Assembly: GCA_049513715.1 (NCBI GenBank)
Contig: JBEKVV010000004.1
Location: 96,001-160,000, forward strand
Source: Candidatus Bathyarchaeia archaeon
Lineage (GTDB): Archaea > Thermoproteota > Bathyarchaeia > 40CM-2-53-6
Length of the DNA stretch: 64,000 nucleotides
Reading direction: 5' to 3'
Below the pieces are notes generated by a model, which saw only the letters and a program-made list of their open reading frames with translations, was not told where the DNA came from and did no database searches. Both the position numbers and the translations under genes were made by a program. Every line of letters starts with the position of its first letter. The stretch's first letter is position 1. This document shows, piece by piece, positions 42,879 through 54,693 of the stretch.

Positions 42879-44075
42879 TTAGCCTATGTTCGTTGGGGAG
42901 TTTTGTTCAGTTTTCCGGAATATTGCGTAGAAGAGGGTTATGGACATGACGTACAAGATTGTGCAGAGGTAGAATGGCAAGCTGAGGTTGCCCGCGTTCA
43001 GTAGCGAGCCACCGACGACAGTGCTTGCTGCGTTCGGTAATCGCCAGATCACCACGTTAAGCGAGGACGCAGTTGCCCTTTCGTCCTCTGCAATCATGTT
43101 CATCAGAAATGTGTCGCCGAGGGGGCTGGACATGTTCATGAGAACTGCACGAATGACGTAGAGGGGTCCGGCGATCATTGGGCTTGGGCTGAATGGGATG
43201 GAGAGTAGGAAAATGGTTGAGAGCCCCTGAGTCACAACGATTCCTCTAATCAAGCCTATTCGTTTAGCGATGCTCGGTGCCGCTAGGGCGGTTAGTCCCA
43301 TTATGATGCTCGATGCTGCGACGAGAGGCCCGCTGAAGACGTCTGTCACATTGAAGCGAAGATAGAACCATGTCGGTATTAGTGGAATGATGAGTCCTGC
43401 TCCCAAGCCGATCATCAGGTTCGCGGTTGAGAATTTAGCTATGATTCCAAGCGATTTGCGAGGCAGTATACCCTTACGTGACGTCTTCGGCTTGATGTTG
43501 ACTGCCCAACGTGAAACCGTAAGCGGGGTTGCGAGGCATATGAGTCCAAGTGCAACGAAAGTCAGTCGGTGCGCTGTCAACAGATCCATTGGCAGCAGCG
43601 GGAATAAGCCGGGCACGAATGTGCCAACACCGGAAGCAATCGTGAAGGTCATGAAGGACAGGCTGAATGTGGCAGCCCTAACATCGGCGGTCGTTGTATC
43701 CGCAAGGTATGCGTTCCATGTGGACAGGTACATGGCCTCGCCTATGCCGCCTGCTATGGCTGAAAGTTCTAGCAGGAGGATGTCTGCTGTGATGCCCGGA
43801 ACTATGATGATGAAGCTCGTGAGAAGTCCTCCGACTAGCATTATGCGTTTGCGGCCGTAACGGTCAGAAAGCACAGCGAACGGGATGCTGAAGACCACGG
43901 TAGTTAACCCGAAAATCGTCAGGAGGGCGCCCAGATAAGTGACAGATATGCCTTCTAAGGGGAGAAAGACTGCTATGGCTACTTCGTAGAAGCCCAACCC
44001 TAGCGCCAAGGGGCTTGCACCCAAAACGACGCGGACAGTGTTTTTCGGGACACTTCCGAATGGGTGCATCTGCAT
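42879..44075 (-). CDS. MFS transporter
   Basis: LSDRYGRK, about 12 TM. Confidence 0.92.
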   Translation of the reverse strand: MQMHPFGSVPKNTVRVVLGASPLALGLGFYEVAIAVFLPLEGISVTYLGALLTIFGLTTVVFSIPFAVLSDRYGRKRIMLVGGLLTSFIIIVPGITADILLLELSAIAGGIGEAMYLSTWNAYLADTTTADVRAATFSLSFMTFTIASGVGTFVPGLFPLLPMDLLTAHRLTFVALGLICLATPLTVSRWAVNIKPKTSRKGILPRKSLGIIAKFSTANLMIGLGAGLIIPLIPTWFYLRFNVTDVFSGPLVAASSIIMGLTALAAPSIAKRIGLIRGIVVTQGLSTIFLLSIPFSPSPMIAGPLYVIRAVLMNMSSPLGDTFLMNMIAEDERATASSLNVVIWRLPNAASTVVGGSLLNAGNLSLPFYLCTILYVMSITLFYAIFRKTEQNSPTNIG

Positions 44076-44126
44076 TGGCCACTTACCAGGGGTTCTGATT
44101 AGATGAGCATGCTGATCGAAAAAAAG

Positions 44127-44543
44127 CTACGCCATGTTCTCGCGAAGGATCCCTGCGACTTCGGTCGGAAGCAGAGTAGCCTTCCAGTTCAGGTCGACTG
44201 CGATGCATTTCAAGTAGCCTTCAGCGGCCAATTCGTTCGTTTCCTTTTTGTTTAGTTGAAACTCGTATGTGACGGTCTTATCGGTGATTTCCTTGACCTT
44301 CATTACGACTTCAATGAGGTCATCGTACTTGCAGGCTACCATGTATACACAGTGTGCTTCAACCCTTGGTAGCATTATTCCGTATTTCTCGCGAATTTTG
44401 GCGTGAGTTGCACCCAGTGAGCGGTAGAACTCTTGCTCGCAGGCCTCGAAGTACCTGAAGAAGTTGGTATAGTGCATCACTCCCGCTACATCTGTGTCAA
44501 CCCAACGAACACGAAACGCGTATTTGAAACTCATCGCGGTCAA
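44127..44543 (-). CDS. acyl-CoA thioesterase (YbgC/4HBT family)
   Basis: VRWVDTD.AGVMH..NFFRYFE. Confidence 0.9.
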   Translation of the reverse strand: MTAMSFKYAFRVRWVDTDVAGVMHYTNFFRYFEACEQEFYRSLGATHAKIREKYGIMLPRVEAHCVYMVACKYDDLIEVVMKVKEITDKTVTYEFQLNKKETNELAAEGYLKCIAVDLNWKATLLPTEVAGILRENMA

Positions 44544-44662
44544 CTATCCCATTGTCCGGCTGAAAGTACTCCATAGATTTAACGAAGCCGTATTGCAAAT
44601 GCGAAAAGGCTGCGGGATTCTCTGAAAGCTTATAGGGCACGCGCCAGAGGCTTTGGTTTTGT

Positions 44663-44837
44663 CCCGCGGTAGCTCAGCCTGGTAGAGCTTCCGAGTCGCT
44701 CTAACTAGGAGTGACGGAGACGCTGTAGGTGTGCGCCCAAGGCGCGGCCATGTCAGCCTACTAGGCTAACAACCGAAACCGGACTGTCGCTGGTTCAAAG
44801 CAGGTGTTACCCTGTGAAAATCCGGCCCGCGGGACCA
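44663..44837 (+). tRNA. tRNA-Tyr(GTA) with three BHB introns (30/31, 37/38, 59/60)
   Basis: Removing 44694-44721, 44729-44777 and 44800-44820 gives a 77-nt cloverleaf. Confidence 0.92.
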
Positions 44838-45668
44838 TTATTTTGATGGTCGTGGGATCGGGGCTCCATTCTCCTTCAAAAGCAGAAGCCGTTCTTGAAG
44901 AGTTGTATGTGGTGGACAGGTACCAAGGGCTTTCCATACTAGGAATTTCGTATTCTTCGACAGATTGGCGAATCCCACTCTCATCATCCAGTAATGTAGC
45001 TGCTTACGACCCTTAATCCATATCAAGTGAAGTGGTACTCGACGCATCTGCTTGCTTTGGTATACACTACTATAGAAACGAAAACCCAGGTTCTTGAGCA
45101 AGCGAGTGGTGCCACTTGCGAGCGAGGGACTGCATGTTGAGAAGTTCAAAATGGGATCAGAGTATTCGGATCTTGCGTTCTTGCCAAATGAGAGTGAGCC
45201 GTCCGTGTCAAAGAGACCTCTCAAACAAGCTGAGTAGAACGATTTGTCATTGGAGTCCAGGAGAACGTCGGGTATACGGGCTCTGTACTTGGGCCCAACT
45301 GGCAATCCAAGAATCTTGGATTTGAAATAGAATACGGCCATGGAGCCGTACATCAGGTTCAGTTCTGACTTTTCAGGGCGCTCGTAAGTGCTACCTCGAA
45401 GATTGTAGAGCCGGGAAACAAGCGTCGAAACATGCGAAAGGAGGTAATCGCGGTCTTCTCTGTTATGCCCTGTATAGATCCATCGATACTCTGTTCCTCC
45501 ACGTTTCGGCCTGCAGAACTTCAGTTGGCCGTCACCCAAATGAATCCCGATTTCCTCCGCAAGCTCTATCGACATTTCTTTGGGGATCGTAACCTGTCTT
45601 CGGTCATCATTCCAACTGCGTGGCAGTGTCGAAGGAATCGGAGGCCTCATCCTTGCATATCGCTCCAA
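44838..45668 (-). CDS. free-standing two-motif LAGLIDADG homing endonuclease
   Basis: ELAEEIGIHLGDG and CLRGLFDTDGS; no intein splice ends. Confidence 0.88.
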   Translation of the reverse strand: MERYARMRPPIPSTLPRSWNDDRRQVTIPKEMSIELAEEIGIHLGDGQLKFCRPKRGGTEYRWIYTGHNREDRDYLLSHVSTLVSRLYNLRGSTYERPEKSELNLMYGSMAVFYFKSKILGLPVGPKYRARIPDVLLDSNDKSFYSACLRGLFDTDGSLSFGKNARSEYSDPILNFSTCSPSLASGTTRLLKNLGFRFYSSVYQSKQMRRVPLHLIWIKGRKQLHYWMMRVGFANLSKNTKFLVWKALGTCPPHTTLQERLLLLKENGAPIPRPSK

Positions 45669-45762
45669 GAGTGTGAGTAATTGCGACTACTAATGCGAGA
45701 GAGCTAGGTGAAACGAATCTGGAATCGTACTAGTCCTACCGTGCAGTATTCAATGAAGGACA

Positions 45763-45910
45763 GCTGTAGTCCTGTACCTTGATGGTATGGGGAGTTCAGC
45801 TTACTAGGCGTACAACGTCTGAAACCGGAGTGTCGCTGGAGAACCGTTCAATGGTTCGGCGAATTCAAAATGGAGTGCATAACTCTATGAAACTCCGGCC
45901 CGCGGGACCA
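45763..45910 (+). pseudogene. 5'-truncated tRNA-Tyr(GTA) copy with introns at 37/38, 53/54, 59/60
   Basis: GCTGTAG|45770-45823|ACCGGAGTGTCGCTGG|45840-45863|TTCAAA|45870-45893|TCCGGCCCGCGGGACCA; acceptor 5' strand absent. Confidence 0.85.
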
Positions 45911-45978
45911 TAACCGAGCTGTAAACGAAACCGTGTTCAATGACTCTTTCACCCTGAGAGCGGGTTCGTTTCCTGATT

Positions 45979-46455
45979 CTACGTGGTCGGTTTGGATACC
46001 TTGTAGAGAAACAGCTTGCGCTCAAGACCACCACTGCTTCCTATTGCGACTTTTTCAGGTGTGAAGCCTGGGAGCTCATAGTCAAGAGAAACGATTCTGG
46101 CGCCCTCTTTGAGTTCCTGTTTCAGTTTGGGTGCTAGCTTCGAGTTCACGCTATCTGAGAGGTAGATGATGACGGCGTCGGCAGGGGAAACGTCGACGTC
46201 CATGAAGTCTGCTTGGATTACTTGTGCTTCGATGCCGGTGGATTTTACGCGTTCCTGAATTCGGGAAACTCGTTCGGGGTCGATCTCGATTCCAACAACC
46301 TTCGCCCCGAATTTTCGTGCAGCTTCGATTAGAATGCGTCCGTCACCGGCTCCCAAGTCGTAGATTGTCTCCCCGCGTCGAATTTGGGCGAGCGAGAGCA
46401 TCTGGTGCACTATGGATTTTGGTGTTGGAATGTATGCTACGTCTAAGTCTACCAC
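45979..46455 (-). CDS. SAM-dependent (protein-lysine-type) methyltransferase
   Basis: YIPTP, YDLGAGDGR, GIEID. Confidence 0.9.
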   Translation of the reverse strand: MVDLDVAYIPTPKSIVHQMLSLAQIRRGETIYDLGAGDGRILIEAARKFGAKVVGIEIDPERVSRIQERVKSTGIEAQVIQADFMDVDVSPADAVIIYLSDSVNSKLAPKLKQELKEGARIVSLDYELPGFTPEKVAIGSSGGLERKLFLYKVSKPTT

Positions 46456-46520
46456 TCTATTCGTCCTCGTCGCAAATTCATTTCAGGTCTTCGAGGAGTT
46501 GGCGACCCAGAGAAAGAAAG

Positions 46521-52769: not shown

Positions 52770-52790
52770 GGGCCCGTAGTTTAGTCAAGG
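52770..52790 (+). repeat. tRNA 5'-end fragment GGGCCCGTAGTTTAGTCAAGG
   Basis: Resembles the start of tRNA-Lys at 52380. Confidence 0.55.
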
Positions 52791-52915
52791 TGAGTCCGAC
52801 TGTTTTCGTACACTTTTAGTGGGTGAGTGGCGTGACTGAGCCTAGGCAACGCGGAAGGCTATCTCAGCGCAAAGTCTCTTTAGTAAATCCAAAAGCTAGT
52901 CGTTTCGGGTCTATT

Positions 52916-54445: not shown

Positions 54446-54589
54446 CATTGGAGGTCGGCATGTGATGTGCTGGTCGGTGATGCTTTTACCTTTTCGGGAA
54501 ACGTAAACCCAGGGAAGCCACCCGAAAAGAAACCGCTTAACCGCGGTCTTGGGGAAGGGTCCCGGGTTCAAACCCCGGCGGGCCCGCCA
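54446..54589 (+). pseudogene. 5'-truncated tRNA-Lys(TTT) copy (positions 25-76) with three introns
   Basis: CATTGG|54452-54481|GCTTTTA|54489-54519|ACCCGA|54526-54556|GGGTCCCGGGTTCAAACCCCGGCGGGCCCGCCA. Confidence 0.85.
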
Positions 54590-54693
54590 ACTCCCTGTTC
54601 CTCATGAATGTCCGCGTGAATCCGAACAGCCTTCTTGCTGGGGCCCTGCAGATGATGGTCGAGAAGAATGGAAGCTTTTGCATCTAAGCCAGA

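Follow-up and report, generated by a model that had tools for sequence, protein, structure and literature searches.

An antisense LAGLIDADG endonuclease gene between two tRNA-Tyr copies of a Bathyarchaeia genome as a probable homing cassette that exchanges tRNA introns

By what means the tRNA genes of archaea acquire, lose and swap introns at non-canonical positions is still unsettled. In the available part of a 2026 preprint (10.64898/2026.10.13.758758), the route by which such introns arrive is left open, with no general route found, and the words 'homing' and 'LAGLIDADG' are absent from that part of the text. A locus in a Candidatus Bathyarchaeia archaeon poses the question in concrete form: within a 64,000-nt stretch of its genome (assembly GCA_049513715.1, contig JBEKVV010000004.1, positions 96,001–160,000; hereafter the window), an endonuclease gene of the homing type lies between a complete tRNA-Tyr gene and a second, 5'-less copy carrying a different set of introns. 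Here we ask what this arrangement is, and what it does to the introns on either side of it.

Architecture of the tRNA-Tyr locus

The locus comprises the following features, in window coordinates:

44629..44637, + strand: TATA-like box, a putative promoter, ~26–34 nt 5' of the tRNA-Tyr start
44663..44837, + strand: copy 1, a complete tRNA-Tyr(GTA) with encoded CCA; exons 44663–44693, 44722–44728, 44778–44799 and 44821–44837; introns 44694–44721 (30/31), 44729–44777 (37/38, type 1) and 44800–44820 (59/60, type a)
44838..45650, − strand: free-standing double-motif LAGLIDADG endonuclease gene, 270 aa
45651..45762, no strand assigned: spacer between the endonuclease start and copy 2
45763..45910, + strand: copy 2, a 5'-less tRNA-Tyr (positions 31–76); exon pieces 45763–45769, 45824–45839, 45864–45869 and 45894–45910; introns 45770–45823 (37/38, type 2), 45840–45863 (53/54) and 45870–45893 (59/60, type b)

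Joining the copy 1 exons by coordinates yielded a 77-nt tRNA-Tyr(GTA) cloverleaf (−33.2 kcal/mol; ARAGORN and RNAfold), interrupted in the gene by introns of 28, 49 and 21 nt and ending in a CCA at 44835–44837. In the raw window ARAGORN overlooked tRNA-Tyr, its single call there being a tRNA-Asp. This locus holds the only tRNA-Tyr 5' half and the only tRNA-Tyr(GTA) of the genome. The position of the TATA-like box suggests that it is the tRNA-Tyr promoter; it is kept in genomes G004, G013 and G014, while the adjoining upstream DNA is not. Copy 2, with introns of 54, 24 and 24 nt, matches positions 31–76 of copy 1 at 45 of 46 nt once spliced.

The intron borders were compared with the bulge-helix-bulge (BHB) motif using a permissive scan that gives dozens of chance matches, such that only motifs coinciding with exon borders count. 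In copy 1, the motif at 30/31 has all four central pairs (4/4) and an inner helix of 8, and that at 59/60 has 4/4 central pairs, an inner helix of 4 and an outer helix of 5; in copy 2, the motifs at 53/54 and 59/60 both have 4/4 central pairs, with inner helices of 8 and 6, respectively. The 37/38 introns are off the strict BHB register: of the central pairs, copy 1 forms 3/4 there and copy 2 forms 2/4. Because five working genes with the copy 2 intron type show the same 2/4 at this site, the imperfect motif of copy 2 is not a sign of decay. The initial annotation had described both copies in these terms, from the complete gene with introns at 30/31, 37/38 and 59/60 to the 5'-less one with introns at 37/38, 53/54 and 59/60, near-identical exons and intact T-arm motifs, and had placed the endonuclease stop codon right after the CCA; our analysis confirms each of these points.

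The endonuclease gene, single-copy in the genome, is antisense to the tRNA, and its stop codon (44838–44840) directly adjoins the CCA of copy 1. Translation probably starts at the ATG at 45650, as in G004, rather than at an in-frame TTG upstream (45668), and the spacer presumably holds the promoter and leader. Pfam LAGLIDADG_3 was detected at 27.9 bits (cut-off 22.5) in the second domain only (residues 144–210 of the 276-aa form). G-D-G (Asp40) closes the first motif and T-D-G (Asp150) the second, and neither aspartate varies in a five-sequence alignment (A3); in a nine-sequence alignment (A2) the first does, being Asn in G001 and G021. An AlphaFold2 model (pLDDT 84, pTM 0.85) matched, in a Foldseek search of the PDB, the TliVMA intein endonuclease (E 1.6e-12), PI-SceI (2.2e-10), I-DmoI (2.8e-10, over 204 columns) and I-Tsp061I (3.7e-8), with WhiA at rank 50; the best match of a sequence-only PDB search had an E-value of 0.5. 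The predicted fold, with its tandem alpha-beta-beta-alpha-beta-beta-alpha arrangement, matches that of monomeric LAGLIDADG enzymes, and the protein has both of the acidic residues. Contigs of RNA run X24 fell only on 44668–44781 and, at depth 2, on part of copy 2, with none on the endonuclease; all show differences typical of other alleles and say nothing on expression.

The ORF is not part of a recognisable group I intron, since an Rfam search of 44000–46500 (E ≤ 10) returned no group I intron and no tRNA, its only hit being a weak match to the C/D-box RNA sR60 (E 4.7). Nor is it encoded by a BHB intron, being antisense and beginning after the CCA rather than in an intron on the sense strand, and the BHB scan gave no motif for a giant intron (44694–45762) that would join exon 1 (ending at 44693) to copy 2 (45763). 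The giant-intron calls made by ARAGORN in this genome were treated as false pairings; the ORFs of one such region, L125, look ribosomal-protein-like by sequence.

Recurrence, lateral transfer and intron exchange

The same three-part unit (complete tRNA-Tyr, antisense LAGLIDADG gene, 5'-less tRNA-Tyr; 1.25 kb in the window) recurs in all five loci of this endonuclease clade, spanning two lineages: this genome (G000) and G004 in one, and three metagenome contigs (L122, L123 and L124) in the other. Endonuclease identity between the two groups is 59–60%, and G000, G004, L122 and L123 form one clade in a quick tree from which L124 was left out (support 100). In L122–L124 copy 2 starts cleanly at position 25 and has no intron at 30/31. 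Distribution is sporadic, with homologues in 12 of 105 genomes of the order, all within one family, and the Tyr type in 2 of the 23 genomes of the genus (g1). G013 holds a remnant of copy 2 that has lost the endonuclease, together with part of the spacer as read from its sequence. Each G handle stands for one genome per species, so that the comparisons of occupied and empty loci below are between species.

G000 and G004 are 98.9% identical in copy 1, 96.8% in the endonuclease gene, 93.8% in the spacer and 90.7% in copy 2, while identity drops to 49% upstream and 23% downstream of the unit; the high identity stops exactly at the CCA of copy 2. Syntenic flanking genes are 70–85% identical in nucleotides. 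For the endonuclease gene dS is 0.055 and dN 0.026 (dN/dS 0.47, from 26 differences and not clearly below 1), whereas the neighbouring thioesterase gene has a saturated pS of 0.758 and a dN of 0.315; the divergence of the unit is far younger than that of its flanks. L122 and L123 behave alike: they are 97–100% identical from inside copy 1 to inside copy 2 and 83–95% in the flanks, where two windows are lower (67% and 70%), and identity is 68% in the comparison window that covers the 30/31 intron together with the first part of the 37/38 intron. Two independent pairs having an identity peak centred on the endonuclease indicates lateral, site-specific replacement, that is, homing. In the empty locus of G014, the sequence after the tRNA-Tyr CCA equals that after the CCA of the G013 remnant, and a similar one follows copy 2 of G004; judged from this comparison of empty, remnant and occupied loci, the displaced copy 2 retains the ancestral downstream flank.

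The introns move with the unit, as had been proposed at the outset. The three copy 1 introns of G000 and G004 are identical bar one base, and those of other species of the genus differ; over the whole of copy 1 only 2 of 175 positions differ, at exon position 44 and within the 59/60 intron. L122 and L123 have in common only those introns that lie closest to the endonuclease. G013 and G014 share 130 of 133 positions over tRNA positions 1–53, introns included, and the working gene of G013 has two T-arm introns absent from G014. All four combinations of two anticodon-arm and two T-arm intron haplotypes exist. Conversion tracts ending inside the tRNA copies thus reshuffle the intron sets.

Across the genus, tRNA-Tyr genes fall into classes I (introns at 30/31, 37/38, 53/54 and 59/60), II, III (no 30/31 intron, type 2 intron at 37/38) and IV (no T-arm introns). 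Both the L122/L123 pair and comparison with class III show the inner part of copy 2, with its type 2 intron at 37/38, travelling with the endonuclease, so that copy 2 is not simply the 'native' 3' end. A joint from 44693 to 45763 in run X23 (depth 7.9 versus 263) was considered as an empty allele of the source organism and rejected: by its T-arm and downstream flank it is a G008-like class III gene of another species.

A sister subfamily of the endonuclease has the same layout on tRNA-His. Its stop codon starts 2–14 nt past the tRNA in L003, L004, L006, L010, L132 and L133, and lies within the T-loop of the tRNA in L135. Beyond the ORF start, a 3' tRNA-His fragment is present in four of seven loci readable on both sides; three genomes of g2 in this subfamily have no tRNA fragment, and the duplication is therefore not obligatory. 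The His type occupies one syntenic position in three genera, and one copy is a pseudogene (G015). The subfamily of G001 and G021, with Asn for the first catalytic Asp, also bears a long C-terminal extension.

In a census of the wider family that covered 80 loci, 40 have an ARAGORN-called tRNA gene whose end is no more than 60 nt from the ORF stop, and none has one ending that close to the ORF start; a tRNA-Arg(GCG) group accounts for 15 of the 80. tRNA type tracks the endonuclease tree (30 changes versus 47.4 in shuffles, with none of 200 shuffles as low). When the census tRNAs were aligned to their own loci by BLAST, few partial copies were found in DPANN loci, and duplication is thus not general in the wider family. 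With the present locus, tRNA-linked LAGLIDADG cassettes reach TACK-group archaea and the 3' side of the tRNA. As side observations, the distant relative L113 lies seemingly inside a tRNA intervening sequence, and ARAGORN called introns in 14 of the 15 tRNAs that adjoin a convergent endonuclease gene, in 7 of the 25 that adjoin one on the same strand and in 9 of 24 other tRNAs of the same loci (L063 and L113 omitted), counts that come from related loci and unchecked intron calls and serve as a lead only.

Origin of the unit and its effect on introns

We consider it likely, at a probability of roughly 75%, that the unit is a mobile homing-endonuclease cassette resident in the tRNA-Tyr gene. It consists of tRNA-Tyr 1–76, the antisense LAGLIDADG gene abutting the CCA and a displaced tRNA-Tyr 25/31–76. 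Because the cassette would bring its own 3' tRNA part, the host would keep one intact gene (copy 1), and the old 3' part (copy 2) would be pushed downstream, remaining beside its ancestral flank. The endonuclease is predicted to cut a cassette-free tRNA-Tyr gene somewhere in positions 25–76, where comparative data leave at least two candidate cut regions, ~24/25–30/31 and ~38–54. Repair from an occupied locus, in which copy 1 would be the pairing partner of the left end and copy 2 that of the right, would then copy in the endonuclease gene along with variable lengths of both tRNA copies, introns included. Crossovers within the copies and later recombination between the direct repeats could bring BHB introns together in novel sets and, in time, remove the endonuclease.

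The protein might instead be domesticated, a maturase-like or WhiA-like LAGLIDADG protein serving tRNA expression or the splicing of multi-intron pre-tRNA, next to an unrelated partial duplication of the tRNA. Adjacency to tRNA genes conserved across phyla, the single syntenic position of the His type, the altered G001/G021 proteins and the presence of WhiA among the structural matches would all fit. A host function is, however, difficult to reconcile with the sporadic distribution in the order and genus, one pseudogene (G015) and one deleted copy (G013), the signature of lateral transfer and the retention of Asp40 and Asp150 in both the Tyr and the His types, and we consider this explanation unlikely.

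A 3' duplication of the tRNA is the usual scar of archaeal integrative elements. The locus could accordingly be the remnant of an integrase-driven virus or plasmid in tRNA-Tyr, the partial tRNA being an att duplication and the endonuclease leftover cargo; the exact 18-nt repeat at the 3' ends of the two copies fits this view, as does the element with a recombinase that the available text of Sugahara et al. 2012 (PMC3293823) describes next to a fragment of tRNA-Thr, in association with intron gain. The 18 nt are conserved tRNA exon sequence, however, and the whole repeat amounts to 46 exon nt broken up by unlike introns rather than one exact core. The unit contains no recombinase, in keeping with the integrase-free locus initially described: its one ORF is the LAGLIDADG gene, the four nearest ORFs encode an MFS transporter, a thioesterase, the endonuclease itself and a methyltransferase, and the flanks are collinear with G004. 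The same minimal content is found in 5 Tyr and 7 His loci, across 60% and 30% protein identity, and the tRNA linkage of distant relatives in 40 of 80 loci likewise argues against an integrative element, which we regard as quite improbable. The proposal of a tRNA-linked homing unit without integrase is supported by the size of the unit, its collinear flanks and its younger divergence; partial tRNA copies of such cassettes should not be mistaken for integrase scars.

Weak gapped similarity 5' of copy 2, perhaps to the 3' half of an old 30/31 intron and to the D-arm, though its excess over chance is not demonstrable, would suit a plain tandem duplication of tRNA-Tyr followed by 5' decay of the second copy, with an endonuclease that landed there by chance and does not target tRNA-Tyr. 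Such a history is very hard to accept, given that a related enzyme is found in the same layout on a second tRNA (His), that the unit passed from species to species in one piece and into the same locus, and that copy 2 of L122–L124 begins cleanly at position 25 without a 30/31 intron. Finally, although several tRNA-Tyr alleles occur together in the same peat and wetland runs and short-read contigs break within the tRNA 5' region, an assembly chimera of two alleles from co-occurring species can be practically dismissed, as the unit is present in two genomes and three further metagenome contigs, a single 10,478-nt Logan contig (possibly from the source sample) spans 2001 nt with 0 differences, and Logan contigs of 23 DNA runs (the source possibly among them) hold all or nearly all of 135 words sampled from a 1351-nt stretch.

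Returning to the homing cassette, the initial annotation had also suggested that small BHB introns immunise the target, and that the unit is a route to both gain and shuffling of non-canonical introns. Shuffling is borne out by the haplotype combinations and the mosaic copies; as to gain, we saw only replacement and recombination of existing introns. In each of the five occupied loci copy 1 has the 30/31 intron and copy 2 lacks it. The intron is also carried, however, by all 16 endonuclease-free g1 genes belonging to classes I, II and IV, as well as by all 6 genes read from beyond the genus, and is therefore old and independent of the endonuclease. Its distribution gives no support to intron immunisation, and the duplication by itself could split the recognition site.

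It is nonetheless possible, and we advance it tentatively as a doubtful but attractive idea, that archaeal tRNA genes and free-standing LAGLIDADG endonucleases engage in collaborative homing, with endonuclease pressure selecting non-canonical BHB introns and conversion spreading and recombining them. With the exons of a tRNA unable to change, the cheapest way to destroy a recognition site would be to take up a small BHB intron or to swap one for another. If true, collaborative homing would be a general engine of the rapid change and the richness in introns that mark tRNA genes in Bathyarchaeia, Thermoproteales and Asgard archaea. In any case, the locus suggests, in concrete form and open to testing, how intron sets could be exchanged and replaced: a cassette would overwrite a stretch of the tRNA gene by a foreign version bearing other introns, and the two copies could then recombine. 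The genus provides material for this: 23 congeneric genomes, four allele classes, two occupied loci, one remnant and an empty sister locus.

Comparison with known systems

I-DmoI and I-Tsp061I share with the modelled endonuclease the monomeric double-motif fold at 14–17% sequence identity. Their ORFs lie inside an rRNA BHB intron on the sense strand, whereas the ORF here is outside the tRNA and antisense.

In the tRNA-Thr of Caldiarchaeum subterraneum, disrupted by a mobile element, the accessible text of Sugahara et al. 2012 (PMC3293823) ascribes intron gain to integration of the element and recombination. As here, a tRNA allele with extra introns stands beside an inserted element and a leftover tRNA fragment. 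The element described there, 1.8 kb long and repeated in the genome, encodes a putative DNA recombinase, and the tRNA fragment beside it is a 5' one; the sole gene here is a single-copy LAGLIDADG endonuclease, the fragment is 3' and spread appears to proceed by homologous replacement.

Collaborative homing, the model to which the immunisation idea amounts, is known from a cyanophage whose psbA gene contains an intron and adjoins the gene of the free-standing endonuclease F-CphI (Zeng, Bonocora and Shub 2009, summarised in the available part of PMC6083498). There, the intron blocks self-cleavage and the endonuclease mobilises an ORF-less intron. Both systems place a free-standing endonuclease next to an intron-bearing target gene, and in G000/G004 intron and endonuclease were transferred together. 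From what that summary gives, the introns differ, being group I ribozymes in psbA and protein-spliced BHB introns, several per gene, here; moreover, the present locus has a target duplication that may confer immunity alone, and blocking by the intron, reported for psbA, is conjectural for tRNA-Tyr.

For archaeal tRNA genes our searches turned up no hybrid of the mobile ORF (mORF) type in the published literature. In fungal mitochondria, the accessible part of Beaudet et al. 2013 (PMC3630166) describes mORF 'gene hybrids' of Allomyces atp6 and Glomus atp6, atp9, cox2 and nad3, where a free-standing LAGLIDADG (or GIY-YIG) ORF sits between a host gene completed by a foreign 3' sequence and the displaced native 3' part, and the divergence of inserted and native parts is read as endonuclease-driven horizontal transfer. 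Against that description, the host here is an archaeal chromosomal tRNA gene rather than a mitochondrial protein gene, the ORF is antisense rather than fused in frame, the copies differ by BHB introns rather than by synonymous changes, and part of the 'displaced' copy travels with the cassette. The architecture of the tRNA-Tyr unit matches that of the mORF gene hybrids.

The tRNA-Tyr locus and its endonuclease

On the raw window (G000:C4:96001–160000, G000 being the source genome) ARAGORN called only a tRNA-Asp. A scan for BHB motifs combined with splicing by coordinates identified a tRNA-Tyr(GTA) gene at 44663–44837 (copy 1), followed by an antisense LAGLIDADG endonuclease gene and a 5'-less tRNA-Tyr (copy 2). 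The scan is permissive and returns many chance matches, which were counted only where they coincided with exon borders. Introns are named by tRNA position pair; types 1 and 2 at 37/38, and a and b at 59/60, denote different sequences.

44663–44837, + strand: copy 1, complete tRNA-Tyr(GTA), with introns 30/31 (28 nt), 37/38 (49 nt) and 59/60 (21 nt)
44835–44837, + strand: CCA of copy 1
44838–44840, − strand: endonuclease stop codon, immediately 3' of the copy 1 CCA
112 nt: spacer between endonuclease and copy 2
45763–45910, + strand: copy 2, tRNA-Tyr without positions 1–30, with introns 37/38 (54 nt), 53/54 (24 nt) and 59/60 (24 nt)

Spliced copy 1 (77 nt) folds into a cloverleaf, is called as tRNA-Tyr by ARAGORN, and contains the sole tRNA-Tyr 5' half of the genome. 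The exon pieces of copy 2 are identical to it at 45/46 nt, its 37/38 intron has a 5' half unlike that of copy 1, and its 59/60 intron is of a different type. In the BHBs of the 30/31 intron and of the T-arm introns of either copy, 4/4 central pairs form and the inner helix spans 4–8 bp; the 37/38 introns are off the strict BHB register, pairing at 3/4 central positions (copy 1) or 2/4 (copy 2). Because five working genes with a type-2 37/38 intron also score 2/4, this pairing is a property of the type-2 intron rather than decay. The type-2 intron of copy 2 (45770–45823) also gave a weak Rfam match to the C/D-box sRNA family sR60 (15 bits, E 4.7) and contains putative C-box-like and D-box-like motifs; in five congeners, type 2 is the only 37/38 intron.

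The endonuclease gene, single-copy in G000, matches Pfam LAGLIDADG_3 (27.9 bits, cut-off 22.5) and likely starts at the ATG at 45650, giving 270 aa as in the orthologue of congener G004. An AlphaFold2 model built on nine relatives (pLDDT 84, pTM 0.85) was matched by Foldseek over ~205 columns to monomeric LAGLIDADG enzymes, namely the TliVMA intein endonuclease (1.6e−12), PI-SceI, I-DmoI (2.8e−10) and I-Tsp061I; the best match in a sequence-only comparison with the PDB had an E of 0.5. Motif-terminal Asp40 and Asp150 are invariant across this subfamily and its tRNA-His-associated sister.

The same three-part unit is present in G004 and, with part order unchanged, on metagenome contigs L122–L124, where the endonuclease is 59–60% identical and the tRNA-Tyr acceptor stem is different. 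On these contigs the complete gene carries introns 30/31, 37/38 type 1, 45/46 and 59/60 type a; the endonuclease, again antisense, starts ~27 nt past its CCA; and the partial copy runs from position 25, with no intron at 30/31 and with 37/38 type 2, 45/46, 53/54 and 59/60 type b. Thus, across all five occupied loci (5/5), copy 1 combines the 30/31 intron with a type-a T-arm, and copy 2 (5/5) has no 30/31 intron, its 37/38 intron being type 2 and its T-arm type b with 53/54. In a quick tree that included four of the five endonucleases (G000, G004, L122 and L123), these formed one clade with a support of 100.

Of 135 words sampled from the 1351-nt stretch, all or nearly all were present in 23 DNA runs from peat and wetland. 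One contig covers the 2001 nt compared with 0 differences and may derive from the source sample. Contigs from a peat metatranscriptome (X24) extend over 44668–44781, which takes in the intron regions at 30/31 and 37/38, and differ from it in ways typical of related alleles; they therefore represent either intron-containing tRNA-Tyr RNA or DNA carry-over in the library, which such contigs can neither distinguish nor rank by level.

Elsewhere in the window, a tRNA 5' start (52770–52800) and a tRNA 3' end (54558–54590) lie 1.7 kb apart with perfectly complementary acceptor strands. ARAGORN pairs them as a tRNA-Glu whose intron spans 1734 nt; the two ends may belong to two isoacceptor genes with several introns each, or to one gene that is split or interrupted. 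Genome-wide, with introns allowed, ARAGORN called only 33 tRNA genes in G000, many with implausible introns or anticodons; a tRNA-Pyl(CTA) at C2:419817–419913 is among the 33 calls. The majority of tRNA genes in G000 seem to be multi-intron and to escape standard detection.

Intron haplotypes and transfer of the unit

The tRNA-Tyr gene was examined in 29 genomes, from 30 loci; locus L038, a 3-mismatch match of another tRNA, was dropped, and further matches in G032, G040 and G035 had no locus. Four intron classes were found among the 23 genomes of the source genus: class I (11/23; 30/31, 37/38 type 1, 53/54 and 59/60 type b), class II (4/23, G000 and G004 among them; 30/31, type 1 and 59/60 type a), class III (5/23; no 30/31, type 2 and 59/60 type a) and class IV (3/23; 30/31 and type 1 only). 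The remaining pairing, type 2 with type b, is supplied by copy 2, so that all four combinations of anticodon-arm and T-arm haplotypes exist. For characters this complex, such a distribution in the sequences indicates recombination between haplotypes. The segments flanking the endonuclease (type-a T-arm and type-2 anticodon region) together resemble a class III gene, and joining the two outer ones gives a class I gene. If the direct repeats of an occupied locus recombined, the outcome would be a class I or class II gene and loss of the endonuclease.

Around the locus, G000 and G004 are collinear at 70–85% nucleotide identity; the neighbouring thioesterases share 58% protein identity, with saturated synonymous sites (pS 0.758) and a dN of 0.315. 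Within the unit, identity is 98.9% in copy 1, 96.8% in the endonuclease (26 differences; dS 0.055, dN 0.026, dN/dS 0.47), 93.8% in the spacer and 90.7% in copy 2, against 49% upstream and 23% downstream of the unit, and the high identity stops exactly at the copy 2 CCA. Contigs L122 and L123 are 97–100% identical from the 3' half of the copy 1 37/38 intron, via the endonuclease, to the middle of the copy 2 37/38 intron, with flanks at 83–95% save for two lower windows (67% and 70%). Identity falls to 68% in the copy 1 window that covers the 30/31 intron and extends over the 5' portion of the 37/38 intron, and the 30/31 introns are of unequal length (31 vs 21 nt). An identity peak that is centred on the endonuclease, and whose tracts end within the tRNA copies, is the expected trace of homing with co-conversion.

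Proposed homing, decayed loci and the question of intron immunity

The unit is best read as a homing cassette of the mobile-ORF type. The enzyme would cut cassette-free tRNA-Tyr genes somewhere in positions 25–76, and the break would be repaired from an occupied locus, with the left homology arm provided by copy 1 and the right one by copy 2. One candidate cut region is the left edge of copy 2 (24/25 to 30/31); the other, where inner and outer haplotypes join, is the exon stretch 38–53 together with its intron borders. In the peat metagenome X23, a class III tRNA-Tyr like that of G008, a relative (no 30/31, type-2 37/38), co-occurs at low depth (window 44693/45763); the class III gene and the cassette-bearing organism are found in one metagenome, so putative recipients occupy the same habitat as putative donors.

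A second tRNA-Tyr 3' end lies inside the 1.5-kb flank in 3/29 genomes (G000, G004 and G013). In G013 it is a fragment 40 nt past the CCA, without an endonuclease. As read from the sequence, this fragment combines pieces of the spacer and of a type-2 37/38 intron with the terminal portion of a type-b 59/60 intron and the tRNA 3' end. Downstream of its CCA, the flank corresponds to that directly 3' of tRNA-Tyr in G014, and a similar flank follows copy 2 in G004. The genes of G013 and G014 are identical at 130/133 positions over tRNA positions 1–53 including both introns, with similar flanks; the working gene of G013 has T-arm introns 53/54 and 59/60, and G014 has none.

The initial annotation had proposed that small BHB introns may immunise the tRNA target against the endonuclease. 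This may be so, by analogy with collaborative homing, which is known from a group I intron and an endonuclease of a cyanophage (PMC6083498): in every occupied locus the 30/31 intron of copy 1 is located at the edge of the duplication and is missing from copy 2, and tRNA exons offer little other room for resistance. However, the same intron occurs in 16/16 endonuclease-free genes of the genus (classes I, II and IV) and in 6/6 genes read outside it, the five genomes of the genus lacking it also lack the endonuclease, and the duplication by itself may split the recognition site.

Related endonucleases and known systems

A sister LAGLIDADG subfamily (~30% identity) lies between tRNA-His and tRNA-Ala(UGC) in three genera (loci L003, L004, L006, L010, L132, L133 and L135). 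Six loci were read on the tRNA-His side, and in these its stop codon begins 2–14 nt past the end of the tRNA; in L135 it lies within the tRNA-His T-loop. Four of the seven loci readable on both sides (G013, G015, G024 and G063) have a tRNA-His 3' fragment beyond the ORF start, which is missing in G023, G047 and G060; the G015 copy is a pseudogene with an internal stop. The His–Ala interval of G000 (C1:158714–159388) holds no endonuclease. Homologues at E ≤ 1e−15 were found in 12/105 genomes of the order, all in one family. A third subfamily, in G001 (L005) and G021 (L007), comprises proteins of 365–367 aa in which Asn replaces the first catalytic Asp, the second motif contains Glu and the C-terminus is extended by ~100 aa. 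No tRNA was seen next to either gene, and the subfamily may be an inactive or domesticated form.

A wider census covered 80 loci from a species-level genome collection (DPANN lineages, Bathyarchaeia, Hadarchaeota, Methanosarcinales and others). ARAGORN found a tRNA in 56/80, with a tRNA end ≤60 nt from the ORF stop in 40/80 (15 convergent, 25 same strand) and ≤60 nt from the ORF start in 0/80; these counts are lower bounds, because ARAGORN misses multi-intron genes such as that of G004 (L042). The tRNA type follows a quick endonuclease tree, with 30 changes vs 47.4 in shuffles (as low in 0/200). In a Nanoarchaeia MAG (L113:1427–2219), ARAGORN called a tRNA with a 718-nt intervening sequence that holds a sense-strand family member and ends in an inverted repeat; the insert may be a BHB intron that carries an endonuclease gene, and the anticodon assignment looks doubtful.

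In the literature searched, with subscription journals outside its scope, we found no published description of LAGLIDADG genes that abut tRNA genes in archaea. A 2018 report of archaeal group I introns with LAGLIDADG ORFs places all of them in rRNA genes (PMC6125680), and a 2026 preprint on Asgard tRNA introns leaves their arrival route open and homing unmentioned (10.64898/2026.10.13.758758). In Caldiarchaeum, a recombinase-bearing element next to a tRNA-Thr fragment is described together with intron gain (PMC3293823). The mobile ORFs of fungal mitochondria, which come with an inserted foreign C-terminus and a displaced native one, share the architecture of the unit (PMC3630166).
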